Source of the DNA: Candidatus Magasanikiibacteriota bacterium
GTDB lineage: Bacteria > Patescibacteriota > Patescibacteriia > Magasanikbacterales > GWA2-37-8
Reading direction: 5' to 3'
Assembly (NCBI GenBank): GCA_026396515.1
Contig: JAPLWQ010000002.1
Span: forward strand, 193,230 to 257,229
Length of the DNA stretch: 64,000 nucleotides
Made by a program: the position numbers and the translations under genes. The first letter of the stretch is position 1; the number at the start of each line of letters is the position of its first letter. Shown in pieces: positions 18,939 through 36,013 of this stretch. A model generated the notes under the pieces. That model did no database searches. It had not been told where the DNA came from and saw only the letters and a program-made list of their open reading frames with translations.

Positions 18939-20666
18939 ATGATACCTATAAAAATACTGGAGGATGTAGTCAAAAAATACGGTCTGGTGAAAGACGAAGG
19001 GAAGTGGGGACAGGCCAAAAAAGACGCTATAGCACAAAATAAGGACCTTGTGGAAATCGCCTTAGGCGCGAATATATTAGACGAAAACGCGCTTTTTCTT
19101 AAAATCGCCGAGTATCTTGGCCTGGAATTTGTGTCCTTTAAGGGGCGCGATATCAGCCAAGAAGTTATCAATCTGGTGCCCAATCCCCTGGCTCTGACCC
19201 ACAATGTAGTGGCCTATGACAAAACCAAAAGCGAGGTGCTACTTGCGATGACCGACCCGACCGATATCGAAGCGGCTGAATTTATCCGCCGGAAGACCGG
19301 ACTGGAACCGAAAATTGCCGCCACTTCTCCAACGGAGATGAAGGAGGCGCTACGAATGTACCGGACCGGTTTTGAGGAGGAGTTTAAGATAATCCAGGAA
19401 AAATCTGCCGAGGCCGCTTCAAGCGGAGATCTGAAAAAAGTGGCCGAAGAACTGCCAATTGTGAATGTTGTGAACAGTATTTTGGAACATGCCATCTACG
19501 AGGGTGCATCCGATATCCACGTTGAACCAAATGAGAAAGAAATGGACATTCGCTACCGGATTGACGGGGTGTTGCGGCCGATAATGACTTTGCCAAAAAG
19601 TCTGCAAAACGGAATCGTGGCGAGAGTAAAAATTCTCGCAAATCTCAAACTCGACGAACACATGGCCCCGCAGGACGGCCGTTTCAAAATTCAAATTCAA
19701 AATGACAGAACCGCATTTCGTGTCTCCATCATACCGGTCTATGATGGGGAAAAGATCGTAATGCGACTTTTACCTGAAGGCGCCAAGTCGCTCACGTTGG
19801 ATCAACTGGGCTTTCTTGAACAGCCGAAGCAGGCCTTAGAGCGCGCCATAAAAAAACCAAACGGCATGATTCTCGTCACCGGCCCCACCGGTTCAGGTAA
19901 AACTACTACCCTATACTCTATTTTAAGCATGCTTAACCAACCGGGAGTAAATATTTCCACTATCGAAGACCCAATTGAGTACCGTATTAAAGGAATTAAC
20001 CAGAGCCAAATCAATCCGAAAGTCGGTTTCACTTTTGCCACCGGATTACGCGCTTTTTTGCGCCAAGATCCGAATATTATCATGGTCGGAGAAATCCGCG
20101 ACCAGGAGACCGCGGAGATATCCGTCCACGCGGCCATGACCGGACATCTGGTGCTTTCCACTTTGCACACCAATGACGCGCCGACCACTCTACCCCGTCT
20201 CATTGATATGGGAGTACCGCCGTTTCTTGTCGCTTATACCATCAATTTAATTGTCGCCCAACGTTTATTACGAAAAATTTGTACGTTCTGCAAATCCGAA
20301 TTCAAATTGGACAAAAATTCTTTGAACGAATTAGCAAAAGTATTCGGCGTGGAAAAAATTCTGAATTTATTTAAGCAAGCCGGAGTACTTAAGGCCGGAG
20401 AAACGTCTTTGGAAGAAATTACTTTTTATCAGGGCGCCGGCTGTGCCAAATGCAATCAGAGCGGGTACAAGGGACGCCTTGGCATATATGAGGTGCTGGA
20501 GATGAACAATGAGATTACAAAAAAAATAAACGAACACGCCACGGCGGCCGAGCTCAAGACAATCGCTCAAAAATTCGGCATGTTAACTATGTCTGAAGAC
20601 GGCTTAATTAAGGCAAAAATGGGCATTACTTCCATTAGCGAAATTTTGCGCGTTACCAAGGATTAA
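18939..20666 (+). CDS. pilB: Type IV pilus assembly ATPase PilB (GspE family)
   Basis: N-terminal GSPII_E_N-like domain, Walker A GPTGSGKTT, Asp box, His box, tetracysteine CxxC...CxxC. Confidence 0.9.
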   Translation: MIPIKILEDVVKKYGLVKDEGKWGQAKKDAIAQNKDLVEIALGANILDENALFLKIAEYLGLEFVSFKGRDISQEVINLVPNPLALTHNVVAYDKTKSEVLLAMTDPTDIEAAEFIRRKTGLEPKIAATSPTEMKEALRMYRTGFEEEFKIIQEKSAEAASSGDLKKVAEELPIVNVVNSILEHAIYEGASDIHVEPNEKEMDIRYRIDGVLRPIMTLPKSLQNGIVARVKILANLKLDEHMAPQDGRFKIQIQNDRTAFRVSIIPVYDGEKIVMRLLPEGAKSLTLDQLGFLEQPKQALERAIKKPNGMILVTGPTGSGKTTTLYSILSMLNQPGVNISTIEDPIEYRIKGINQSQINPKVGFTFATGLRAFLRQDPNIIMVGEIRDQETAEISVHAAMTGHLVLSTLHTNDAPTTLPRLIDMGVPPFLVAYTINLIVAQRLLRKICTFCKSEFKLDKNSLNELAKVFGVEKILNLFKQAGVLKAGETSLEEITFYQGAGCAKCNQSGYKGRLGIYEVLEMNNEITKKINEHATAAELKTIAQKFGMLTMSEDGLIKAKMGITSISEILRVTKD

Positions 20667-20674
20667 ACATTACT

Positions 20675-21775
20675 ATGGAGGGCGAAAATCACCTAACTTT
20701 ATGGAAAAAGGTTGAAATCTGGCTCACGGATAATCTGACCCGTGTGTCTTTTGTTGAAAAATATCTTTTTGTTCATCATCTGCAAATAATGACCAATGCC
20801 GGACTTTCAATCGTTTCGAGCTTGCACGTTCTCAGTCAGGAAGTAAAAAACAAGAAATTAAAAAAAATCATAACAAACATTAAATCAGAGGTGGAAACGG
20901 GCAAGCAATTAAGCGAGGTATTGGCGCGTTATCCAAAAATTTTTCCGCGTATTTATGTGAGTATGATTGCCGCCGGCGAAGTCGCCGGAAAGATGGAGGA
21001 GGCGCTAGCGCAAATCAGCCACCAAATGAAACAAAGCCAGCAAATATCGTCAAAAGTGCGCGGCGCTATGATATACCCTCTTATCATAATCATTGCCATG
21101 GTCGGCATTTCAATATTTGTTGTTTTTTATATTCTTCCCAAAATCATGGTTATGTTTGATGAAATGGATGTGGAACTTCCTCTGGCCACCCGCTTTTTGA
21201 TCGCTCTGACAAAATTCGCACAAAATTATTGGTGGCTGGTACTGATAGTTATCGGCGTGGCCGTCGCTTCGTTTACCCGCTTGATGAAGATCTCCGGTTT
21301 TAAACATGCTATACATTCACTCTATCTTCGCCTGCCGATATTCGGCGTAATTATTAAAAAAATAAATCTGGCGCGCTTTACGCTCACGCTGTCTTCACTG
21401 CTCGCTTCCACAATCCCGGTGGTTGAAGCGGTCCGCATTTCCTCTGAGGTGCTTGGAAATGTAATTTTCAGGGACAATCTGCTTGCCGCTTCAGAGGCGT
21501 TGAAGCGCGGCGAATCGCTATCAGAAGTTCTGTCGCGATATCCAAGAACTTTTCCACCAATGGTCAACGAGATGATTATGGTCGGAGAACAATCCGGCAA
21601 GATGGAAAATATGCTTTCTGAGCTGTCTGAGTATTACAATAATGAAGTTGAGACAACAATGAATAATTTTACGGCGGTAATTGAACCTGTGATTATTCTG
21701 TTGCTTGGGCTTGGCGTTGCCGGTATCGCCGTTGCCGTTATTATGCCGATGTATTCGCTGGCGCAAAACATTTAA
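20675..21775 (+). CDS. pilC: Type IV pilus platform protein PilC (GspF family)
   Basis: 366 aa with two GspF repeats and 3-4 TM helices. Confidence 0.85.
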   Translation: MEGENHLTLWKKVEIWLTDNLTRVSFVEKYLFVHHLQIMTNAGLSIVSSLHVLSQEVKNKKLKKIITNIKSEVETGKQLSEVLARYPKIFPRIYVSMIAAGEVAGKMEEALAQISHQMKQSQQISSKVRGAMIYPLIIIIAMVGISIFVVFYILPKIMVMFDEMDVELPLATRFLIALTKFAQNYWWLVLIVIGVAVASFTRLMKISGFKHAIHSLYLRLPIFGVIIKKINLARFTLTLSSLLASTIPVVEAVRISSEVLGNVIFRDNLLAASEALKRGESLSEVLSRYPRTFPPMVNEMIMVGEQSGKMENMLSELSEYYNNEVETTMNNFTAVIEPVIILLLGLGVAGIAVAVIMPMYSLAQNI

Positions 21776-21779
21776 TATT

Positions 21780-22871
21780 ATGTTTATCAACAATCCATTC
21801 CATAATGCATTTGGCCTTGATATCGGCGACTCATCGCTCAAGCTTGTTCGTCTTGAAAAAAAAGTCCGGCTTAGCGGCAGAGCGCAATATGAAGCTCCTG
21901 ACATCCGCCAAATCTCCCTACCCGCCGGATGTATTGTCGGCGGAGAAATACGACAACCGGAGTTGGCCAGAGAGAAAATAAAATTATTGTTAGATAAACA
22001 AAATGATGCACCGGCTATTCGCACATCTTGGGTGGTCGCCGACTTGCCGGTATCAAAAACTTTTTTAAAACTTATCCGAATTAGCGCACCTGAAAATGAA
22101 GTTAACGATGAAACAATGCGCCTTGAAGCGACAAAGCATCTTCCTCTGGACATTAAGGAAATGGATATTGATTGGCAGATAATTCACGGCCAAACGCTAA
22201 AACCGAGCGCCACATTCGTACTTCTTGGTGCCACGCCAAAAAATATCGTCAAATCGTATTCAAATTTGCTAAAATCAGCCGCTTTAACACCATTGGCTCT
22301 GGAAATTGAGGATATCTCTATAGCTCGTGCCATGATTACGGCGAATAAGGAATATCAGGGAGAAGCGCGGGCAATCCTGGACCTGGGCGGTTCGCGCTCA
22401 AGTTTAATTATTTATGATAAGGGGTCCATCCAATTCAGTTCATTGCTTAATTTTTCAGGTGACCTGATTGATAATACCATTATAGATCACCTAAAAATTG
22501 AGCCTGCCGCAGCAACCGCGCTTAAAAATAAAAATGGACTAAATTATTCCGACCAATACCCGTCATACTTGAAGATTGTCACAGAATTAAGCGAGAAACT
22601 TGTTGATAATATTTATCAGGCAATAATGTTTTATCGAGATCACTTTTACGAGCCAAATCCGGTGACGCATATTACTATGTCCGGGGGATTATCCGCTTTG
22701 ATAAACCTTGATAAGTTTCTATCAGACAAACTCCAAATTGAATCGACCCTCGGAAATGTTTGGAAAAATTTGTTTAATCCATCTTTGGAAAAAGAAAACG
22801 GCAAGGACCTGGCTATGGCCTCGGCAATAGGGCTGGCGCTCAAAGCGGCCGAATGGCCTATTATTAAGTAA
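21780..22871 (+). CDS. pilM: Type IV pilus assembly protein PilM (actin-like ATPase fold)
   Basis: Start MFINNPFHNAFGLDIGDSSLKLVRL one codon-gap after the pilC stop. Actin/FtsA-like fold. The track ORF begins upstream in the overlap. Confidence 0.75.
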   Translation: MFINNPFHNAFGLDIGDSSLKLVRLEKKVRLSGRAQYEAPDIRQISLPAGCIVGGEIRQPELAREKIKLLLDKQNDAPAIRTSWVVADLPVSKTFLKLIRISAPENEVNDETMRLEATKHLPLDIKEMDIDWQIIHGQTLKPSATFVLLGATPKNIVKSYSNLLKSAALTPLALEIEDISIARAMITANKEYQGEARAILDLGGSRSSLIIYDKGSIQFSSLLNFSGDLIDNTIIDHLKIEPAAATALKNKNGLNYSDQYPSYLKIVTELSEKLVDNIYQAIMFYRDHFYEPNPVTHITMSGGLSALINLDKFLSDKLQIESTLGNVWKNLFNPSLEKENGKDLAMASAIGLALKAAEWPIIK

Positions 22872-25540: not shown

Positions 25541-26608
25541 TTATCTTGAATTTGGATTTGTCGGAGTGCTTGTCGAACCGGTGTCCGGTTCGATTATTAT
25601 TTCTGTCCCGCTGTCATCCGCCGATCCCGGTTCAACGACTCCGGCGTCATCCACCGGTGCTTCCACATCAAGCAAGTTTATACTATCGTCGCTAGATGTA
25701 ACAATATCAAATACCACATCATCCGGATTGGCGCTGGTAAATTGCTCAAATTCTTTGATAATTTCTTCGCGGTATTCATCCAGAGCTTCCTCGCTCGTCA
25801 TACCACCATCTTCAATGGCCTGCAAACGGTCATTAATCTTTTCATCGGCTTCAAGCGACGACTTCACCCATTCTTCACCCAGCACCGCATCGCCCACTTG
25901 CTTAACATCTTCCGAAATTTCTTTCCCGATGCTCGCATAATCCAATACTGTGGCATCGAATATTTCCAAATACTTATCCTCTTCAACCGCCGCCTGCTGA
26001 TTTCCAATCACTTCATCTGTTTCTGGGTTAACAGCATTAACCGCAATTATATGTTCTGACCCGATAATACGGGTCTTTCCGCGTGAATAACTCATGCCGA
26101 ATGCCGAACCGCGCACCGCCGCGACAGCATTAGTTGTTCGCACTTCCCAAACCGACTCCGGCGTCGCCAATTTCATAATTTTTGACCAAAGATTGCCGAC
26201 AATTAATTTAATTCTAACCGTTAGGGTTTTTGTTTTGACATCATACATTCCGGCGGATATTGTAATCTTTGTTTGTGAATCTAAACGGGCCACTGATCCA
26301 TCCGAAAAAAAGATATTCGCCAAACCGTTTTTATCAGTTTCAATTGTCACACCCGCGTCCACTTCATCACCGGTTTTAAGAACAATTTTTTCTGTATTGC
26401 TTGTAATTAAAAAAGCCCCATCCTTAATAACTTGAATCCATGGCTTGCTCGCCATAGTGCCCGTATCTTTTGTCTGATCGCCTTTTTGCTCTTCTGTCTG
26501 TTGCACATTGAGATTCGTTTCAGCAGTTTTCTTGCCACAACCGCTAAACAACATCGCTCCGGCGATGAGAAGAACAAAAATCGCTAAAATGCCTATTGTA
26601 TGCTTCAT
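25541..26608 (-). CDS. FecR-domain lipoprotein with acidic C-terminal tail
   Basis: Lipobox LFSGC. Sequence ...VAAVRGSAFGMSY resembles the FecR domain. D/E/T-rich C-terminus. Confidence 0.5.
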   Translation of the reverse strand: MKHTIGILAIFVLLIAGAMLFSGCGKKTAETNLNVQQTEEQKGDQTKDTGTMASKPWIQVIKDGAFLITSNTEKIVLKTGDEVDAGVTIETDKNGLANIFFSDGSVARLDSQTKITISAGMYDVKTKTLTVRIKLIVGNLWSKIMKLATPESVWEVRTTNAVAAVRGSAFGMSYSRGKTRIIGSEHIIAVNAVNPETDEVIGNQQAAVEEDKYLEIFDATVLDYASIGKEISEDVKQVGDAVLGEEWVKSSLEADEKINDRLQAIEDGGMTSEEALDEYREEIIKEFEQFTSANPDDVVFDIVTSSDDSINLLDVEAPVDDAGVVEPGSADDSGTEIIIEPDTGSTSTPTNPNSR

Positions 26609-27743: not shown

Positions 27744-27817
27744 GTGGACCGTATCGGATTTGAACCGATGGCCTCTTCCATGCCATGGAAGCGCTCTAGC
27801 CAGCTGAGCTAACGGCC
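27744..27817 (-). tRNA. tRNA-Ala(GGC)
   Basis: Acceptor GGGCCGT/ACGGTCC with the G3:U70 identity pair, anticodon loop ATGGCAT, T-arm ATCGG-TTCAAAT-CCGAT. Confidence 0.85.
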
Positions 27818-27872
27818 CGAAATGTAAAAATATTATACTCCGCCGGCATATTTTGTCAAGACAAATAGAACA

Positions 27873-27900
27873 AAAACGCCGCTATTTAGCGGCGTTTTTT
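27873..27900. terminator. Intrinsic terminator ending the surface-protein operon
   Basis: AAAAACGCCGC-TATTT-AGCGGCGTTTTTT. Confidence 0.6.
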
Positions 27901-27901
27901 A

Positions 27902-30787
27902 CTATGCGATTGGAGGTCGTATCGGCAAATTGGCGGGAGGCGGACTTACTGCCGGGGGTATTTGTGGCGGTGCCGGTGGTGGAACAATGGGCGGTGCCGG
28001 CGGTGGCTGGCTTCCCCGCGGCGGTTCAACCGGCGTCATCCCGCTTTTTTCCATTCCAATATCAACCTTAACTACTTCATTTTTCTGTCTGATTTTTATA
28101 TCCGCACTGGTTGTTTTATCATACCCGTTCTTATCAAAAGTAATGAAGTATTCATTAGGTCCAACCATAAACGAATATCTTCCGCTATTATCAGTTACCT
28201 CAGTAGCAACCAATTTGTTAAATTGCTTGCTAAACAATCTTGTAACCACGCGGCCAATTGGTTTCTTATCCGTTTTATCATACACAATACCCCAATTTTT
28301 TGGTTTCTTGGCCACGGACAAACGTTTGAACAAATAATATAAAGCAACCTGCGCAACTAATAGTGAGATGGTCCACCAATTCGGCGATATAACCACAGCT
28401 ATGATACCGGCAACAATGCTTAAAGAGGCGATGAATTTCTGTACATCTCTCAGCCAGCGCTCAATAAGAATGCGCCGCGGCGTTCTTTCTTCGACTCCTG
28501 CCGGATCCACCGGGATATTCGCGGCTATCGCCACGTATTTGTCGTCAACATGAACCGGTTCGCCATGGTAAATGTCCAAAAAGCCTGTATCCTCCTTGAA
28601 TTCCTGCAAAATTTTTGTCGGAAAAACATATCCTGGTTTTGTTACTTCCAAACGGTATAAACCCGGCTCAACGAAGAACGCATAGCGGCCCTCAGCATCG
28701 GTCACCCGGGACTGGACAATTCTGTTTGTTTTTGAATCAATTACCCGAACAATAGCCAGGTCAATCGGCATTTTACTTAGTGAATTATATACAATTCCCC
28801 ACTTCTTCCTTTTTCTTCTGCCAAACAGGAATATCGGCTGTAGGAATAAGAATCTCAAATATGATAATAAACTTAACAGGGAAAGAGCCGGGACAGTGGC
28901 TAAAAGAGCTGACCCCAAAGCGATCGGCGCCACCGCCTGCTCGGCGGCTTTTTCCACATTCGGGTTGTCCGCACTTTCTATTAATTTATTAACTTGATCT
29001 TGCGCTACCGAAGCTACATAGGAGGCTTTATCAGTAAGTGGTACGTTAGTGTCCAAAAGGTCAACTGATCCAACTAATTGAAACTGTCGATTGACTATAT
29101 GATTTGTCAGCGCAAATCCGCTTGTTTGTTCAGTGCGAAAACCGCCGGCCTCGGCCCTAATTCTAAATGTTCCATTCGGCAATACAAAACCATATCGGCC
29201 ATTCGCTGATGTCTGCGTTCTGGCCACTTGTACATATTGCCCGCCCGCATACTGCTCGGCTATTACGCTCGCGCCGGATACTGGGCCGATACCATCCCGG
29301 GTTTTGCCATTAATAATGCCCTGCGTCAAGATAGAAACAGTAAATGGAATTACTGCTTCGCTCGATGACCCATAATCAATCGTAAGCGCCGCATTGTGCA
29401 AACCGACAGCGCTTAAATCGGTAACATCAACCGCGTACATCCGCAAGGAGTTATCATAATATAGGCGATAAGTATTTTCACCAAGCAATAAATTGACTTC
29501 GGAAACCTGTTCGCCTATCTCACTTATATCAGCGGCCACAGTTAAAGAAAACCCGCTTAAAGCTTCAACCGAGCCGCCTGTATTCGGCACTGCTTCAACA
29601 GTTCTGTTGGCCAAATAGAATTTTAAATCGGTCAGCGAAACAACTCCGCCGGTTGATGGTGTGGACGTGGCGGTCGGGCACTGTACTTCACCGAAGACAA
29701 ACTCATTATTGTCAGTTTCATTTTCACAGCCCGGATCCGCTAAATCGATCAGATTGTCATTATCATTATCTACCCCATCACTGCACTGAGTTACAATACC
29801 GCCGCTGGGCGTTGTCGAGCAAGAATAATCACCGGTCGAAAATTCATTATTATCATCCGAATTCGCGCATCCGGCATCAGCCGGAAAATCAATTCTACCA
29901 TCACCATCATTATCCACACCGTCAGAACATTGAGGCGTAATTGCACTGGCTGAGCAGCCAAGCTGGGCGCAGGATAAGTCATTAAACTGATAGGTCCTGG
30001 ACATGGCGTTACCGGCCTTATCAACAGCAGAAGCCGACACCACCACCTTTAGTTCCGGCGTAAGATCATTTACGGGATTTATATCGATTGAATACCACTT
30101 GTCATCAGTACCGTGCGCCGTGCGCGTAACATTTATCGGCAACTCAATATTGTTTTGCTTTACCACAACACTGAAGGTGCTCATGTTAAGGCCGGATCCG
30201 TCGTCGCGAATATCAAATTTAATATTCTGTCCGACCGGATGGTTTGGATTGTCCGGTACCGGGTCTAAATTAGTAAGATATGGCGGCTGCGTCTCACAGT
30301 ATCCATCAATAACAGTGTAACTACCTGATGTAACGCCGGTTAAGATATTTTCACTTGAGGGGTGAGCCGCAATTTTACTCGTAATGTCGCCGGCATTATA
30401 TCTGACGGTCAGATTAAGAGCGCCGTTGATATTACTCCGAACATTCACAGTGGCATAATTTAACGCGTTGCCATTTACGATTCCACCATAGCCAAACAGG
30501 CCGACCGTCCCGGCCGGCACTCCCGGTGGCGTACCATAGGTGCTGAATAATCCCGCGCCGGAAAGCCCAATTGTTCCGCCACCTAGCGCTCCATAATCAA
30601 CATATACTTGCGCGCCATTTGACGCCTGACCGTCTGTGCTCATTTTGACACGGATCTGCGCCGTGCATCCTTTTATAAGATTGCCGGATGCCGGTTCAAG
30701 ATAAAAAGTCGCGGCAGATGCCAAGTCAGCTTTAAAGAAAATCAATAGAGCAACAGCTGCAAGCGACCAACGGATAAATTTCAACAT
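27902..30787 (-). CDS. Large surface protein with TSP3-like Ca-binding repeats, two internal TM helices, two CarboxypepD_reg-like domains and a Pro-rich tail
   Basis: Signal peptide MLKFIRWSLAAVALLIFF...ASA. Repeats CSDGVDNDGDGRIDFPADAGC...DDNNE occur twice. Two segments resemble the carboxypeptidase regulatory domain. C-terminus is PPPAPPIVPPPAPP. Confidence 0.6.
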   Translation of the reverse strand: MLKFIRWSLAAVALLIFFKADLASAATFYLEPASGNLIKGCTAQIRVKMSTDGQASNGAQVYVDYGALGGGTIGLSGAGLFSTYGTPPGVPAGTVGLFGYGGIVNGNALNYATVNVRSNINGALNLTVRYNAGDITSKIAAHPSSENILTGVTSGSYTVIDGYCETQPPYLTNLDPVPDNPNHPVGQNIKFDIRDDGSGLNMSTFSVVVKQNNIELPINVTRTAHGTDDKWYSIDINPVNDLTPELKVVVSASAVDKAGNAMSRTYQFNDLSCAQLGCSASAITPQCSDGVDNDGDGRIDFPADAGCANSDDNNEFSTGDYSCSTTPSGGIVTQCSDGVDNDNDNLIDLADPGCENETDNNEFVFGEVQCPTATSTPSTGGVVSLTDLKFYLANRTVEAVPNTGGSVEALSGFSLTVAADISEIGEQVSEVNLLLGENTYRLYYDNSLRMYAVDVTDLSAVGLHNAALTIDYGSSSEAVIPFTVSILTQGIINGKTRDGIGPVSGASVIAEQYAGGQYVQVARTQTSANGRYGFVLPNGTFRIRAEAGGFRTEQTSGFALTNHIVNRQFQLVGSVDLLDTNVPLTDKASYVASVAQDQVNKLIESADNPNVEKAAEQAVAPIALGSALLATVPALSLLSLLSYLRFLFLQPIFLFGRRKRKKWGIVYNSLSKMPIDLAIVRVIDSKTNRIVQSRVTDAEGRYAFFVEPGLYRLEVTKPGYVFPTKILQEFKEDTGFLDIYHGEPVHVDDKYVAIAANIPVDPAGVEERTPRRILIERWLRDVQKFIASLSIVAGIIAVVISPNWWTISLLVAQVALYYLFKRLSVAKKPKNWGIVYDKTDKKPIGRVVTRLFSKQFNKLVATEVTDNSGRYSFMVGPNEYFITFDKNGYDKTTSADIKIRQKNEVVKVDIGMEKSGMTPVEPPRGSQPPPAPPIVPPPAPPQIPPAVSPPPANLPIRPPIA

Positions 30788-30819
30788 AGTTTTTATTTGA
30801 TAATTTTTCGTAATTAAAA

Positions 30820-31764
30820 TTATAATATCGGATCGCCTTTCTTGTTATAATTCACCAGAACGGCACTCATATCAAGCACATCAACAATTCCATCGCGGTT
30901 TAAGTCAAACTCAAGATTATGAGAGTTGAATTTAATGTCTTCAGCGGAAATATCAAGGATGTCGACATAATTATCTTTTAAACCAGTACCCTGAACATCA
31001 CCTGCTAATAATGAAAAAACGCTGGCCTCGGAAAAATCCAAAACCGCGTCCGTACCATTTTCCAAATGAACGCCAATTATTTTTTTTGCCAGATGCGATT
31101 GGCCTTTCAAAACTGCTTCAAAATTTCCGGTAGGCGCCCCGATATATTGTACTGTCGAAGAACCGACATCATTAATTGCGGTTGTAAATGAAAACATCAG
31201 TTGCTTTGTCGCCGAATCATACAGCAGCAAGGTTACATCCAAAGAGAGATTGCCGCCCGTCTTTGGCACACGCTTCTCCGGCTTGGCAATTATTGTCAGT
31301 TTATTTTGAAAAGCGGGAGAAAGAGTAACAAATGTGCCAGTGGCGGTTGTCTGATTGCTGGTATCAGCGCAGGTAATTAAAAAATAGTACGGCGTACCAG
31401 TGGTTAGGTCGCTTAAATTGACATAAAAATTTGAACCAGCTACGTTTGTCGCGCCAGAGGTGCCGTACATATCGGTAAGACCATAATTAAAAGAACAATA
31501 ACCTACTGACACATTATCTGTCGCTATCCAACTTACTGTGGCAGTAGTAAAGGATACATCTGTATTTATATTTGAAATAACCGGCGGTATGTTGTCGCTT
31601 GAACCGCCGCCTCCGCCCGGTGGCGTGCTGGTTGATGGCACGACAAATTGCACGTTTATATCCCCGGTTTCTTGAGCGGTAAAAGCAAAAGAGCCAAACA
31701 AAAAACAACCGCCCAATAATAGAAGTAGCAACACTACCCCAATATTGTAACGATTGTTAATCAT
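30820..31764 (-). CDS. Secreted FN3-domain protein with C-terminal dockerin-like repeat
   Basis: Signal peptide. PPVISNINTDVSFTTATVSWIATDNVSVGYC is FN3-like. DLNRDGIVDVLDMSAVLVNY is a dockerin/EF-hand-like Ca-binding repeat. Confidence 0.5.
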   Translation of the reverse strand: MINNRYNIGVVLLLLLLGGCFLFGSFAFTAQETGDINVQFVVPSTSTPPGGGGGSSDNIPPVISNINTDVSFTTATVSWIATDNVSVGYCSFNYGLTDMYGTSGATNVAGSNFYVNLSDLTTGTPYYFLITCADTSNQTTATGTFVTLSPAFQNKLTIIAKPEKRVPKTGGNLSLDVTLLLYDSATKQLMFSFTTAINDVGSSTVQYIGAPTGNFEAVLKGQSHLAKKIIGVHLENGTDAVLDFSEASVFSLLAGDVQGTGLKDNYVDILDISAEDIKFNSHNLEFDLNRDGIVDVLDMSAVLVNYNKKGDPIL

Positions 31765-31765
31765 A

Positions 31766-32644
31766 TTAAACTTTTTTTCTTCTAAATATCGCGACAGCTC
31801 CCAAAGCGGAAAATATCGCCAATAATATCCATAAATATAAAGGAAGATACCAGACGCTCTTTGTCGCCACCACTGTTTGCTTTGTTAAACCATAATTCAC
31901 CTTTACTTCAGCTTCATAGAGTCCTGGTAAGAGCAAACGCGCCGGCAAGTCCAAGTTTGCCGAAAAGCTCCTGCCTGACGATGGTAAAAGAGGCAGGCCA
32001 AAACTTATATCGCTTCGCGACACTTCGCGTCCCAGCCAATCGCGTACCGTAATTTCGCCTTTTACCGGCAATTCGGTGACGCAAGTATTAACTATGGAAA
32101 GAATCGCAGGCCAACTCTTCTTGACCGTAATGCCCGGCACCTCCCAGTGGTCAATACTTAACGACTCATTTACAACACCCGCGACCTGCAAAAGAAAAAC
32201 TGATACCAATTGGCCCGAGACGCCAACTTGCTTTTCAGCCTCACCAGTCACGCTCTCTGCCGCCAAGCCAAGATAATGAGACCCTGCCAAAGCGTCCTGC
32301 GGTACACTGACCGAAAAGTTAATTATTTTTTCAGAGTTTGGAAGAATCTCCACTATATCAACTTCCGGACGCACCCATGTTTCAGCGACTGAATTCTTTT
32401 CCATAAATGCCAGCCGCCCGCTTTCCATCTGCCGTGCGCCTAACACCTTTATCTTATATACCTGTTTTTTTGAAGACGAATTTTTGACTGTCAATGATAC
32501 ATCATGGCTCGACGTGCCCGGCGTAAGCGTCAGGTGATACTTGAGAGGGCTAATTGAAAAAGATTGACACACCGTAGTGAAAAATAATGCGCCAACGACC
32601 GCAAAAAAAAATATTTTTATCCAGCTTCTCATCATGTTTATCAA
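31766..32644 (-). CDS. Cell-surface protein, N-terminal signal peptide and C-terminal TM anchor with RRKKV tail
   Basis: 292 aa. Resembles the DUF916/DUF3324-type architecture of Gram-positive surface loci. Weak. Confidence 0.35.
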   Translation of the reverse strand: MINMMRSWIKIFFFAVVGALFFTTVCQSFSISPLKYHLTLTPGTSSHDVSLTVKNSSSKKQVYKIKVLGARQMESGRLAFMEKNSVAETWVRPEVDIVEILPNSEKIINFSVSVPQDALAGSHYLGLAAESVTGEAEKQVGVSGQLVSVFLLQVAGVVNESLSIDHWEVPGITVKKSWPAILSIVNTCVTELPVKGEITVRDWLGREVSRSDISFGLPLLPSSGRSFSANLDLPARLLLPGLYEAEVKVNYGLTKQTVVATKSVWYLPLYLWILLAIFSALGAVAIFRRKKV

Positions 32645-33264
32645 AGATTAGCGGACGCAGACATAGTCACTGTCTGGCTATAACTGCCGACAGCAGACGC
32701 AGCATCTATTGATGCTTTAAAAGAAATATCTGTCGCACTCGGGTCTATCGCCGTTGAGGTCGCCGAAACAATCGTACCAGCCGCTACCGCCACATCGCCT
32801 ACCACCTGACTTTCCGAACCACTGGCCGAAAAACCGTATTCTTCAGACCCAATGCTAACGGCGCCGTCGGATACTGCCGCAAGACCGGCCCCTGCCACGG
32901 CTGACATAGACATGGAATAGCCACTAATGCTATCTGTCCCCACGGTTACCGTAGTTATTGCAGTATTTATTGCCCCAGTACTTAATGTGCCTAAATTGAG
33001 CGCATTGTCGCTAATATCCATGGACAAATAGCCCCGCTCCATATATTGATAGCCGGCTCGTATTTCATAGGCGCTGCTTGATGAAAAATCACTCGGCGAT
33101 TCGCCGATTGTATCTTGAAGTGTGTAAGCTCCGCCCGAACTAAAACTACCGCCTGCATCTACTGAATCGGCATAAATGTAATAATTTGTTGAAGACATGG
33201 CGGCGAATACATTAAAAGGTACGGCCGCCATGGCCAACATAAGTAGCGCCGCGTAGAAACGCAT
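32641..33264 (-). CDS. Secreted Ser/Ala/Gly/Thr-rich protein (possible fibre/fimbrial-like subunit)
   Basis: 207 aa, signal peptide MRFYAALLMLAMAAVPFNVFA, low-complexity S/A/G/T body. 4-bp overlap with the downstream gene. Confidence 0.35.
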   Translation of the reverse strand: MRFYAALLMLAMAAVPFNVFAAMSSTNYYIYADSVDAGGSFSSGGAYTLQDTIGESPSDFSSSSAYEIRAGYQYMERGYLSMDISDNALNLGTLSTGAINTAITTVTVGTDSISGYSMSMSAVAGAGLAAVSDGAVSIGSEEYGFSASGSESQVVGDVAVAAGTIVSATSTAIDPSATDISFKASIDAASAVGSYSQTVTMSASANL

Positions 33265-33273
33265 AACAAATTT

Positions 33274-35586
33274 TTATTGATTCGCCGGTGTTTCCTCCGG
33301 AGCAGCCGTTCCTCCACCAACCAGAGACCTAATTTTGCTTGTGATATCTTTATTGTCCGGATTTAAATCTTTTACTTTGTAATAGTACTGCAGAGCAGTT
33401 GTTTTATCTCCGCGCGATTCATACAGCAACCCTAAGCTGTATAAAGCGTTTGAATAATTTGGCTGGAGGTTCACTGAATTTAGCCAAAGCGTTTCGGCAT
33501 CAGCGCGATCTTTATCTTTATTGCGGTTATATAATAGGCGGCCAAAATCAAAGAGTAAAACCGGATTGTTCGCGGCACCATATGACATCGCAGCTTTGTA
33601 CGATTCTACCGCTTCATCCAATTTATTTTGCTGTTCATACACTCTCGCCAGGCCGACATACGAATCAAGATAGTCGCGCTTTAACTCGCTCGCCTCCTTA
33701 TAATTTTTTATCGCATCATCCATCTGGCTTGATAACGCATAGTTGTTGGCTAACCGCCAAGAAAGTACCGGGTTGGTCGGCTCAAGCTCTTTTGCCTTTT
33801 GCCACGATTTAATCGCCCACTCTCTCGCTTCAGGGACAATGACGGCCGCATTTTCATACATGATAGCCAGATTTTCCCAGATCGCAACAGAACGGGGGGA
33901 TATTTCAGTGGCAGTTCTCGCTTCGTTTACAGCTTGCGCCACAAACGAACTGACAGCTTGCAGGTCTTTGCTTCCAGTGTTAACTAAATTTACCGCCTGC
34001 ATTAAGTATACCTGCGCCAATGCTGCATGATAAACATCCGAGCTGCCCCTCTGAAACAGTGCACGAGTTAAATTGCTTTGCGCTTCATTATAATCTTTAC
34101 TGGTGATAGCTTTGGCATACGACGCCTCCGCAAGATATAACCGCGCCCCCCACACTCCAACCATAATCAGGCCGGCGAGCACAACAATCATTACGAATGA
34201 AAAAGTCAGGCTGTATTGCGGAGTATCTTCAACTTCCCACTCTTTTTGCTTAATTACTTCGGGGTTAATAAATGATAACCCGGTAATAATTAAACCAAGC
34301 ATCAGCCACCATAACCACCATAATACCGGACCGAAAAACACGACAGCCATGGCACCAGTTAATACCAGCCAGGCCGCTGCCGTAATAAAAGTATCCAATT
34401 TGGTTTCCACAGAGTCGCCCATATCAACCATTTTAACAGCCGAAAAACCACCCCTCTTAAACCAAACGTTAAATACATGGCCAATTACATATAGGACCGC
34501 GAACAGAATAATAAGAGTGATCAGGACTCCGCCTTCAGCAAGGAGCGCCATAAAGGTTGAAAGCGGCTGACTGAACCGTAATGACCAAGCCAAAGTATCA
34601 TTATTAAAATCAACTGACCGATACTTTGAGAAATCAACATTGAAAGTACCCAAACCACTACCCAATAAAAATCCTTTTGCTCCGGAAAAAATAGTTTGAG
34701 ATGTAATGGACCATGAAGGTTTTGCCCCAAGAGAAATTTCGGCCGGAACTGCAGTCTGCAAATATCTCGGCGTACCAAATGCGATAAATATTACCGTTAA
34801 CATTAACATGGCAAACAAAGCTGAAACCCAGCCCAGCCGTACTTCTTTCATAAAGCTGACACCGACAAGCAGTAATAATATCAACCCTGCCAACACTATC
34901 CACCAAAGAATATTAAAGCTGAGCAACACGAGCGAGGCAAAACAAAGAATCGTTACGAAGAAATACATTATTGACTTCCCTACCAACATGTTCTTTTTAA
35001 GCAAATTGCCCGCGGCCAATAACATGATGACAATAATCCAAATGCCAAATGGCGTATTAATTTTATCAATTGAATTTAATGCGCCCGGGAATAACCAAGA
35101 AAGCAAGTCAAGTTTAAAGACAGCCTTCAAGATAAACACTAATGTCGTAAATCCACCGGTGTACACCATGGCATCAACCAAACCGCTCCAACGCGCGCGG
35201 GAATTGATGAAATTAGTAATAAGAAAATAAAAAACCGCTAGGAAAATAAGGTAAACATAGTTGAACACGAAATATTCATTTCTACCAAGAAACGAATCAT
35301 AATGATTCACTGAAAAAATGGACGAGAAAAGTGCGAACAGCAGTAAACCCAAGATCGGTAAATCCATTATTGACCGACGGTATGAAAGTGTTTTTGACAA
35401 AATCATTTTCGCCACAAACAAAATTACATTTACCAACAGTAAGCATATAAATGCATACTGTTTTGGTATGATATAAAAATTAACCAAATTTCTGTCCATA
35501 AACAGCGGCACGGCCACTGCATTGACCAGCAAAAAGACATACGAAAATATGTCTATAAACTTCAATACCTTCTGATTACCCATCAT
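33274..35586 (-). CDS. Wzy_C (O-antigen ligase-like) polytopic membrane protein fused to C-terminal TPR repeats
   Basis: 770 aa. About 12 TM helices in the N-terminal 480 aa, then at least 5 TPR-like repeats. Same architecture as PglL/TfpO-type O-oligosaccharyltransferases. Confidence 0.6.
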   Translation of the reverse strand: MMGNQKVLKFIDIFSYVFLLVNAVAVPLFMDRNLVNFYIIPKQYAFICLLLVNVILFVAKMILSKTLSYRRSIMDLPILGLLLFALFSSIFSVNHYDSFLGRNEYFVFNYVYLIFLAVFYFLITNFINSRARWSGLVDAMVYTGGFTTLVFILKAVFKLDLLSWLFPGALNSIDKINTPFGIWIIVIMLLAAGNLLKKNMLVGKSIMYFFVTILCFASLVLLSFNILWWIVLAGLILLLLVGVSFMKEVRLGWVSALFAMLMLTVIFIAFGTPRYLQTAVPAEISLGAKPSWSITSQTIFSGAKGFLLGSGLGTFNVDFSKYRSVDFNNDTLAWSLRFSQPLSTFMALLAEGGVLITLIILFAVLYVIGHVFNVWFKRGGFSAVKMVDMGDSVETKLDTFITAAAWLVLTGAMAVVFFGPVLWWLWWLMLGLIITGLSFINPEVIKQKEWEVEDTPQYSLTFSFVMIVVLAGLIMVGVWGARLYLAEASYAKAITSKDYNEAQSNLTRALFQRGSSDVYHAALAQVYLMQAVNLVNTGSKDLQAVSSFVAQAVNEARTATEISPRSVAIWENLAIMYENAAVIVPEAREWAIKSWQKAKELEPTNPVLSWRLANNYALSSQMDDAIKNYKEASELKRDYLDSYVGLARVYEQQNKLDEAVESYKAAMSYGAANNPVLLFDFGRLLYNRNKDKDRADAETLWLNSVNLQPNYSNALYSLGLLYESRGDKTTALQYYYKVKDLNPDNKDITSKIRSLVGGGTAAPEETPANQ

Positions 35587-35853
35587 AATGTATATATTAC
35601 GAGTAAAATATTTATTATTAAGTCAACAAACGGCGATCCGACCGAATCACCTGCAGCAATTATATCACACTTTATAAATATGATAAACTGTGAATAACTC
35701 AGTAATGGGACCTGTGTAAACATCTGCACATCTCGGAACCGTGTCCATGTATTTATGGCATATGCATGTGCTCTATTGCGCGAACTGGAAGTTCAACCGG
35801 GTTGGACAATTCATTTTCGGGTTATCTCACGCCTCGTGTGCAGAAATGTCATT

Positions 35854-35938: not shown

Positions 35939-35942
35939 TGAG

Positions 35943-36013
35943 TGGACTTACCGGGAATTGAACCCGGGTCTCCGCAATGCGAATGCGGCGTACTACCGCT
36001 GTACTATAAGCCC
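35943..36013 (-). tRNA. tRNA-Ala(CGC)
   Basis: Acceptor GGGCTTA/TAAGTCC with G3:U70, anticodon loop TTCGCAT, T-arm CCGGG-TTCAATT-CCCGG. Confidence 0.8.

Follow-up and report, generated by a model that had tools for sequence, protein, structure and literature searches.

A five-gene operon of Candidatus Magasanikbacteria as a candidate minimal, diverged Pam-type surface fibre locus

The operon and its boundaries

The subject of this report is a five-gene operon in a 64,000-nucleotide stretch of DNA from a Candidatus Magasanikiibacteriota bacterium (GenBank assembly GCA_026396515.1, contig JAPLWQ010000002.1, positions 193,230 to 257,229), the whole of which is called the window here and supplies the position numbers used below. 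Five co-oriented open reading frames (ORFs), all on the minus strand, make up the operon, and the ORF listing of the window places them exactly where a preliminary description of this DNA had put them. From upstream to downstream these are g1 (33274-35586, 770 aa), a polytopic membrane protein; g2 (32641-33264, 207 aa), a candidate for a secreted fibre subunit; g3 (31766-32644, 292 aa), a candidate membrane-tethered chaperone; and g4 (30820-31764, 314 aa) and g5 (27902-30787, 961 aa), which in many relatives are joined into one large protein. The genes are considered here as a possible relative of the Pam pili known from the Candidate Phyla Radiation (CPR).

The ORFs are separated by +9 nt (g1/g2), -4 nt (g2/g3), +1 nt (g3/g4) and +32 nt (g4/g5), which bears out the compactness first attributed to them, although the statement that most gaps or overlaps were of 4 bp or less went too far. 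The terminator that had been proposed as the end of the operon is real: it lies at 27872-27899 on the minus strand, begins 2 nt past the g5 stop codon and consists of a 12-pair stem (6 G-C pairs), a 4-nt loop and a T-run. The tRNA-Ala boundary is real as well, with such genes on both flanks, tRNA-Ala(GGC) at 27744-27818 beside the g5 end and tRNA-Ala(CGC) at 35942-36013, ahead of the 355-nt spacer upstream of g1. A consensus scan placed a candidate operon promoter, TTATCA-16-TG-TATAAT, at 35659-35686 (minus strand), approximately 70 nt upstream of the g1 start; this is a consensus match only, at 10 of 12 positions plus the extended -10 TG. Only tRNAs were found when the 355-nt region was scanned with Rfam for a riboswitch or leader.

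Conservation was followed in 38 loci, 34 of them from GTDB species representatives and four obtained by exact protein look-up; two of the loci (L001 and L002) lie on the same contigs as two others (L006 and L008), and locus L039 was added later and analysed separately. The preliminary description had named a lack of co-conservation as one of the observations that would speak against its operon. What was found is strong co-conservation, the order g1-g2-g3-(g4, g5) on one strand being kept in 33 of the 34 species loci, mostly from Candidatus Magasanikbacteria. This block common to related species supports the view that the five genes are transcribed together, conserved together and encode a cell-surface assembly of a CPR bacterium.

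The proteins g2 to g5

Mature g2 contains neither Cys nor Trp, carries a net charge of about -15 and consists to 54% of Ser, Ala, Gly and Thr, in agreement with its first description as a subunit rich in these residues. Pfam gave no match for g2 or for 114 relatives of its family. The only meaningful matches of g2 in NCBIfam were PamT (NF058579; E 5e-11, 42.4 bits against a cutoff of 240) and Pam_pilin_C (NF058581; E 6.6e-5, 23.0 bits against a cutoff of 55), two models that derive from the Pam pili (bioRxiv 10.64898/2026.03.03.709456). A profile of the g2 family retrieves 3195 cluster representatives, and in a sampled set of 45 members (44 relatives and g2 itself) PamT was matched by 41 and Pam_pilin_C by 39. 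One relative, P0146 from a Buchananbacteria metagenome-assembled genome (MAG), is 33% identical to g2, reaches 153.8 bits against the Pam_pilin_C cutoff of 55, aligns along the full-length PamT model and is encoded in a locus with the same core of pilin, chaperone and big protein. Since most relatives match the Pam models and P0146 exceeds the cutoff, g2 belongs, by homology that is transitive at the profile level, to the CPR Pam pilin superfamily as a diverged, PamT-like member with a single domain.

The N-terminal extension of g2 (aa 22-77; 33034-33201, minus strand) is a candidate donor-strand or linker region, to judge from its conservation and low predicted local distance difference test (pLDDT) values, and carries three short strand motifs, STNYYIYADSV, AYTLQDTIGE and AYEIRAGYQ. 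The most conserved stretch of the whole family is formed by aa 21-40 (AAMSSTNYYIYADSVDAGG), yet aa 21-74 are unstructured in the AlphaFold (AF2) monomer model (pLDDT <50), and this combination reads as the signature of a donated strand. The remainder (aa 78-207; 32644-33033, minus strand) is a beta-sandwich of the pilin-type Ig-like fold, which the model predicts very confidently. Its neighbours among solved structures, all with modest scores, are donor-strand fibre subunits overall: the TLP-1b fibril ranks at the top, and the pilin domains of FimH and PapG, FimG, CsuA/B, CfaB, PapA, Caf1, archaeal threads, bundling pili, cannulae and TasA are also found. The likeness to TLP-1 extends to the donated N-terminal segment, which is disordered in monomer predictions as in g2; AF2 predicts this strand of TLP-1 to be disordered, and it folds only within the fibril (PMC11494351). 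Donor-strand fibres without an usher (Bacillus TasA, archaeal threads, bundling pili and cannulae, and the TLP-1 fibrils from pond water) are thus structural neighbours of g2, but no sequence relation of g2 to them was found, and TasA fibres, threads and cannulae differ from the present locus in having no dedicated gene for a membrane-anchored PapD-like chaperone beside that of the subunit. Single-sequence searches of g2 and of g3 against PDB sequences gave nothing, and no deposited PamA or PamB structure was among the matches of g2 when Foldseek was run against the full PDB.

Relatives of g2 with 300-367 aa carry a domain of 110-130 residues inserted between N-terminal motifs 2 and 3, which gives these two-domain forms the plan of N-terminal domain (NTD), linker and C-terminal domain (CTD) described for PamA and PamB (bioRxiv 10.64898/2026.03.03.709456). 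Three other relatives (P0238, P0280 and P0145, the last at 10001-10909 of L039) are partial tandem duplications, in which the first half covers profile positions 1-118 and the second 85-209; unlike the forms with an inserted NTD, they make up a third architecture among the pilins of the family. No further pilin or chaperone copies were found in the window, which thus holds one single-domain pilin gene and one chaperone gene.

The AlphaFold model of g3 (pLDDT 88.6) has two Ig-like sandwiches between a signal peptide and a C-terminal transmembrane (TM) helix. Domain 1 spans aa 29-132 together with a strand at aa 145-154, domain 2 spans aa 162-266, and the TM helix occupies aa 269-291; the RRKKV tail reported earlier on this anchored protein is confirmed, the translation ending in IFRRKKV. 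The closest solved structure is WxLIP of Enterococcus, and PapD/FimC-type chaperones come next. The g3 family is small (26 clusters), and 22 of 26 members match Pfam WxLIP_PGBD, with a best E of 7.7e-9; g3 itself stays below the cutoff of 27.3 bits, at 22.9. Model confidence is low in one segment only, a loop that leads into the final strand of domain 1, and nowhere is the family more conserved than along this strand (LLLQVAGVVNE). The donor strand G1 of PapD-type chaperones has the corresponding position. On the strength of its predicted fold, g3 is a candidate membrane-anchored chaperone of WxLIP/PapD-like type. Its architecture equals that described for PamC and PamD, the two PapD/FimC-like chaperones with C-terminal TM helices of the Pam system (bioRxiv 10.64898/2026.03.03.709456), beside which g3 is set by description and not by sequence.

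The genes g4 and g5 occur in two forms among the relatives. In the split form, found in 12 species and in the window, they are separate, and the dockerin tail of g4 and the N-terminal module of g5 (approximately 260 aa) are always both present. In the fused form, found in about 20 species and additionally in L003, L004 and L039, a single protein of 960-1350 aa joins g4-like FN3 domains to the C-terminal two-thirds of g5, and the complete fused proteins lack both the dockerin tail and the g5 N-module without exception. Judged by this pattern, g4 and g5 are one functional unit, split or fused, which the preliminary description had overlooked, as it had the place of g2 and g3 at the heart of the system. 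The all-or-none occurrence of the dockerin tail and the N-module suggests that the former docks on the latter and so rebuilds the fused protein, and the g5 N-module is accordingly a candidate receptor for the g4 dockerin. Because the dockerin is lost upon fusion, it appears to be dispensable, an internal connector rather than part of a scaffold for many enzymes.

Protein g4 begins with a signal or TM segment (aa 4-31), followed by the strand INVQFVVP (aa 36-43; 31636-31659, minus strand), which is a candidate donor strand, a Gly-rich linker, an FN3 domain (aa ~60-150) and an X-module with dockerin (aa 215-314; 30823-31122, minus strand). The FN3 domain previously assigned to g4 has a weak single-sequence match in Pfam (fn3 E 0.078; Pur_ac_phosph_N E 0.0046). 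At the same time, aa 61-221 of g4 align to aa 90-237 of the fused protein of L004 (E 7e-22), and in the fused proteins it is the N-terminal part with FN3 that is orthologous to g4. The strand after the signal has the consensus (I/V)N(V/I)Q(F/L/M)TVP in g4 and the fused proteins, with a Gly- or Cys-rich linker behind it. Searching the N-terminal 90 aa with a regular expression gave a match in 31 of the 34 orthologues, compared with 3% of shuffled sequences; on visual inspection, the matches in L034 and L039 are not the post-signal strand, which leaves about 29 genuine ones, and the three non-matching orthologues carry a variant. The fused protein of L039 has a pilin-like SASYSLT motif in its place. 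By analogy with the N-terminal strand of PamR, INVQFVVP of g4 is a candidate for the strand that would cap and anchor the g2 fibre.

The dockerin-like repeat had also been noticed before. As a single sequence it is insignificant (E 0.14-0.15; 12.7 bits against a Pfam cutoff of 22.9); at the profile level it is real, the last 100 residues of 13 g4 orthologues matching solved dockerins with E 4e-9 to 1e-3, among them 5k39_B (E 4e-9), the X-dockerins 4u3s_B and 4wi0_B (E 1.6e-7) and 2b59_B. The tail has one canonical DxNxDGxVDxxD loop, and the other, first loop is degenerate. It is like the cellulosomal type II/III X-dockerin-cohesin pairs in matching dyads of X-module and dockerin and in keeping the canonical Ca-binding loop, but differs from cellulosomal dockerins in its degenerate first loop, in a partner that bears no cohesin signal and in a proposed task of joining two halves of one anchor.

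The N-module of g5 (aa 1-260; 30008-30787, minus strand) consists of a signal peptide, an all-beta module of approximately 140 aa and a Big_5-like Ig domain. It is followed by two acidic double-disulfide repeats of the form CSDGVDNDGDGxID...GC (aa 283-356; 29720-29941, minus strand). These Asp/Cys repeats, initially taken for thrombospondin type 3 (TSP3) repeats, match NCBIfam NF033662 with E 5e-12 and 45.3 bits (cutoff 41), whereas no Pfam TSP_3 match is listed for g5 at E<=1, and the TSP3 assignment is not supported. Assignment to Pfam CarboxypepD_reg (PF13620) was confirmed with E 2.4e-25 and 89.1 bits against a cutoff of 32.3, but over three stretches and not two. The first of these transthyretin-like domains (aa 492-562; 29102-29314, minus strand) is the best PF13620 stretch, lies N-terminal of the first hydrophobic region and is placed outside the cell. 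That region, delimited by Kyte-Doolittle hydropathy (aa 618-655; 28823-28936, minus strand), has an acidic flank assigned to the outside and an RRKRKK flank assigned to the inside. Transthyretin-like domain 2, a TM hairpin (aa 783-822) and transthyretin-like domain 3 were located with Pfam and hydropathy and together take up aa 664-915 (28043-28798, minus strand). A proline-rich tail, confirmed in the translation as the polyproline end reported for g5, closes the protein (aa 918-961; 27905-28036, minus strand). The two internal TM helices first described correspond to two hydrophobic stretches of approximately 40 residues each, which probably make up three helices in total. Hydropathy and flank charge place aa 25-617 outside, and the TM hairpin is rich in K/R on both flanks, so that by the positive-inside rule transthyretin-like domains 2 and 3 are probably cytoplasmic. 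For a surface protein, such domains facing the cytoplasm would be out of the ordinary. In addition, a unit of hydrophobic hairpin, K/R cluster, WG(I/V)VY(N/D) and transthyretin-like domain occurs twice within aa 618-915 (28043-28936).

Among the loci, 33 extend far enough to include the C-terminal part of g5, and all of them, L003, L004 and L039 included, keep it with E 1e-87 to 1e-206; aa 664-915 show the highest conservation within the protein in all loci, and g5 is a candidate membrane platform or anchor. The big-protein gene follows the chaperone gene in each of the 35 loci (L039 among them) whose contig extends far enough, often with overlapping stop and start codons. L003, L004 and L039 retain the triad of pilin, chaperone and big protein, with E 1e-37 to 1e-48 for the hidden Markov model of the chaperone; L039 has two two-domain pilin genes, and L003, a Buchananbacteria locus, has flanks completely different from those of the Magasanikbacteria-type loci. 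Around the operon, RmuC is syntenic upstream in 32 of 38 loci and YchF downstream in 12 of 38. An explanation of the co-conservation as mere synteny of close relatives was rejected because the triad stands between different flanks in L003 and L039 and because the downstream flank is variable, with the caveat of the upstream RmuC synteny just given. The conserved core, as gene content and homology indicate, is therefore pilin, chaperone and big membrane protein. The named relatives (Magasanikbacteria, Buchananbacteria, Wildermuthbacteria and 'Patescibacteria group') restrict it to CPR/Patescibacteria.

A probable Pam-type fibre and alternative readings

CPR bacteria are regarded as living in attachment to other microbes, by means that are largely obscure. 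Pam pili were first described in 2026, from one cultivated Saccharimonadia-related parasite, as donor-strand filaments of PamA and PamB solved by electron cryo-microscopy (cryo-EM) in Candidatus Mycosynbacter amalyticus (Troman et al., bioRxiv 10.64898/2026.03.03.709456). The same preprint describes a single-domain tip pilin, PamT, and PamR, a membrane anchor of FnIII type with an extra N-terminal strand proposed to cap and tether the pilus; it highlights Saccharimonadia and Microgenomatia, and its CPR organism is described as having no outer membrane.

The combination of genes in the window had at first been regarded as matching no described apparatus. This was mistaken, since membership of g2 in the Pam pilin superfamily, together with g3 as a chaperone candidate of WxLIP/PapD-like type, is the plan of the Pam pili. 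Common to both systems are a pilin (here g2) that is restricted to CPR, exported by Sec and equipped with a C-terminal Ig-like domain related to Pam_pilin_C, and, encoded beside it, a two-Ig-domain, membrane-anchored, chaperone-like protein (g3); g4/g5, with FN3, TM helices and a conserved post-signal strand, may correspond to PamR by architecture. Neither system has an usher, sortase or ATPase in the operon. The differences concern above all the anchor, which in the present system has approximately 960-1350 aa or is split in two and possesses about three TM helices and transthyretin-like domains, whereas PamR is small and RbmA-like. Moreover, the hosts here are Magasanikbacteria and relatives, and no ATP-synthase neighbourhood was seen.

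We favour, with moderate confidence, the reading of the operon as a minimal, diverged Pam-type surface fibre of Candidatus Magasanikbacteria, that is, a chaperone-assisted donor-strand pilus. All five proteins would be exported or inserted by Sec. The fibre subunit would be g2, its N-terminal extension being donated to the Ig-like sandwich of the neighbouring subunit. Tethered to the membrane by its C-terminal helix, g3 would hold freshly exported g2 by strand complementation, in the manner of PamC/PamD, WxLIP or PapD, until the N-terminal strand of the next g2 displaces it, and the fibre would thereby grow from its base without an usher. The cell-proximal anchor, the part proposed for PamR, would be formed by g4 and g5, with the INVQFVVP strand filling the groove of the last g2 and ending the fibre. 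The FN3 and X-dockerin body of g4 would dock on the N-terminal module of g5, a tie that one polypeptide would make in the relatives with the fused form, and g5 would be fixed in the membrane by approximately three helices, its last two transthyretin-like domains and Pro-rich tail lying in the cytoplasm. A role of such a fibre in episymbiotic attachment is plausible.

Several observations weigh against this reading. Far below both curated cutoffs, g2 is by NCBI criteria not a Pam pilin, and no Pam-specific chaperone model in NCBIfam was matched by the g3 family or by the distant chaperones. The window has one single-domain pilin and one chaperone, as opposed to PamA/B/E/T and PamC/D, and contains no two-domain pilin of PamA/PamB type, although such forms exist in relatives; in the published model, PamT is described without a donor linker (bioRxiv 10.64898/2026.03.03.709456). 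The role described for WxLIP, to which g3 is structurally closest, is that of stabilising non-filamentous WxL proteins and not that of a pilus chaperone (PMC10599100). No cohesin was found in the g5 N-module by Pfam on the isolated module and on 13 orthologues or by profile against PDB; a cohesin fold, considered for this module, is thus not upheld, and only a cohesin-like role is proposed. The polytopic TPR protein g1 at the head of the operon, a further difference from the Pam pili, is left unexplained. Finally, the g2-g2, g3-g2, g4-g2 and g4-g5 contacts are ones that we infer.

The main rival, a non-filamentous complex of the WxL-cluster kind, is disfavoured. WxLIP, composed of DUF916, DUF3324 and a TM helix, accompanies WxL proteins as their conserved partner in Firmicutes (Hassan et al. 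2023, PMC10599100; PDB 9i1y) and is predicted to insert a strand into its WxL partner (PMC10599100). In such a complex, g3 would hold monomeric g2 by strand insertion, g4 and g5 would form a large host-binding partner, and no polymer would arise. The logic of the cluster is indeed the same: it encodes a secreted beta protein of small size, an anchored protein of DUF916 type and a large surface protein of many domains (PMC10599100); the predicted architecture of g3 is WxLIP-like, in addition to its structural and family matches, and the window holds only one small subunit gene. Nevertheless, a WxL cluster is defined by at least two WxL-domain proteins (double Trp-x-Leu motif); neither domain nor motif was found here: g2 as a WxL-domain protein was rejected, as it contains no Trp and Pfam WxL is matched by 0 of 114 family members, and Pfam gave no such match in g4 or g5. 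With 292 aa, g3 is shorter than most WxLIPs (337-365 aa) and comes from another phylum, the large protein is held by its own TM helices and not by a WxL domain, and the partner of g3 belongs to a filament-forming family, the Pam pilins, whose filaments were solved by cryo-EM. The conserved but unfolded N-terminus of g2, as in polymerising donor-strand subunits, and the multi-pilin loci among relatives (L039) also speak against a complex without a polymer, which we consider unlikely.

The locus is therefore not a WxL cluster, nor is it a chaperone-usher system, since it has no usher and its chaperone candidate is anchored. It resembles chaperone-usher pili in the predicted pilin-like, possibly incomplete Ig fold and the N-terminal extension of g2 and in the predicted two-domain PapD-like fold of g3. 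Unlike them, the Pam-type picture includes neither outer membrane nor usher, and g3 is membrane-tethered; none of the five proteins matched the Usher or PapD families of Pfam, and no sequence similarity to Pfam pilin families was found either.

Among the papers listed by a literature search, none joined WxL with donor-strand or chaperone-usher terms; the words chaperone and donor are absent from the WxLIP paper (PMC10599100), and WxL is absent from the Pam preprint (bioRxiv 10.64898/2026.03.03.709456). It is conceivable, if rather doubtful, that a single ancient system of chaperone and donor-strand subunit, in bacteria without an outer membrane, gave rise to both the Firmicutes WxL clusters and the Pam pili as its branches, that the present locus is a bridging minimal form and that the g5-type protein is the missing membrane platform for assembly and anchoring. 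That protein, which is absent from the published Pam model, would then be the functional counterpart of the usher and might connect the cytoplasm with fibre assembly. Should the WxL link be real, a virulence-associated locus of enterococci, listeriae and lactobacilli would be a relative of a pilus-assembly system.

The reading as a Pam-type fibre extends this kind of structure to Magasanikbacteria and relatives in its simplest form, with one pilin and one chaperone. Beyond the published Pam model, it adds a large membrane protein conserved in the neighbourhood to the same degree as the chaperone, a natural pair of split and fused forms with a dockerin as internal connector, and a link in sequence and structure from a Pam-type chaperone to the WxLIP of Gram-positive pathogens.

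A further alternative builds on the preliminary description, which had proposed a Ca-dependent, possibly glycosylated surface assembly with dockerin-like and TSP3 modules; here the assembly would be cellulosome-like, and g1 would be an O-oligosaccharyltransferase of PglL/TfpO type that glycosylates the Ser/Thr-rich g2. The case turns on g1. Hydropathy gives about 12-13 hydrophobic segments in aa 1-490, and a TPR domain occupies aa ~520-750, whose repeats, assigned from the outset, were confirmed by Pfam (TPR_1 E 3e-14); an NCBI entry with 100% identity to g1, from a Candidatus Magasanikbacteria MAG, bears the annotation TPR protein. The assignment of the membrane part to Wzy_C (PF04932), on which the O-oligosaccharyltransferase function rested, was not reproduced by profile searches: Pfam gave no match even at E<=10 in g1 or its isolated membrane part, only two of 30 orthologues gave weak matches (best E 0.002) and the other 28 none, PF04932 is absent from the precomputed Pfam annotation of the 120 best homologues (0/120), and a profile of the membrane domain matched no solved structure in PDB. 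An invariant motif of an extracytoplasmic loop at aa 309-353, GSGLGTF...N...W-S-L-R-F-(S)-Q-P...E-G-G, followed by a TM helix, would suit a glycosylating enzyme; it recalls an O-antigen-ligase-like loop, but a Gln stands at what we take to be the position of the catalytic His in those enzymes. The dockerin that is real at the profile level, the acidic Cys repeats of g5 and the composition of g2 also fit the proposal, as does an extra density on a PamA serine (bioRxiv 10.64898/2026.03.03.709456).

However, the dockerin disappears from the fused g4-g5, the TSP_3 match is lacking, and g1, although encoded in 33 of 34 Magasanikbacteria-type loci, is absent from L020 among the species loci and from L003, L004 and L039, distant loci that retain pilin, chaperone and big protein. 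This distribution makes g1 a lineage-specific addition that is not essential to the core mechanism, and g1 is regarded here as a lineage-specific accessory heading the operon. As it depends on a Wzy_C-type g1 that lacks support, the glycosylation proposal is not supported, and we judge it improbable. Less probable still is that g4/g5 is an independent membrane-anchored adhesin or envelope protein that merely shares a transcript with g2 and g3 and has no physical link to g2, a reading which the highly variable extracellular part of g5-type proteins (FN3 number, Cys-rich repeats), as in adhesins, and the inferred nature of the g2-g4 contact would allow, but against which stand the big protein behind the chaperone in all 35 loci, even where the flanking genes all differ, and the post-signal strand motif that is kept while the domains behind it vary.

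Neighbouring genes and features

Between the operon terminator and tRNA-Ala(GGC), a perfect sigma-70 consensus promoter for that tRNA gene, TTGACA-16-TATAAT (12/12), is located at 27832-27859 on the minus strand. Farther downstream, YchF is adjoined by a gene (25541-26608, minus strand) whose product has a FecR domain, an acidic tail and a signal of lipoprotein type (LFSGC); it is kept in 5 of 38 loci, the closest relatives only. Type IV pilus genes lie at 18939-22871 on the plus strand, approximately 5 kb downstream of the operon, and encode a PilB-type ATPase (T2SSE, E 1e-130), PilC (T2SSF) and PilM, so the genome would encode two unrelated fibre systems side by side. L001 carries PilM/PilN at the equivalent position.

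In two related loci, the big-protein gene is followed by one for a giant secreted protein, with 1595 aa and a Peptidase_S74 C-terminus of tail-fibre type in L004 (15024-19811) and with more than 2632 aa and Peptidase_G2/LVIVD in L039 (16586-20909). These may be the 'tail fibre-like protein' reported as co-localised in the Pam preprint; the window has no such gene. Approximately 6 kb upstream of the pilin gene, L003 carries DruA, NurA-like and DUF87 (HerA-type) genes (1-3676), possibly a defence island and unrelated to the fibre. The label 'uncultured Gammaproteobacteria bacterium' on L005, L010, L011, L014-L016, L019, L020, L025, L027, L031-L033 and L037 is probably a submitter default and does not reflect taxonomy.

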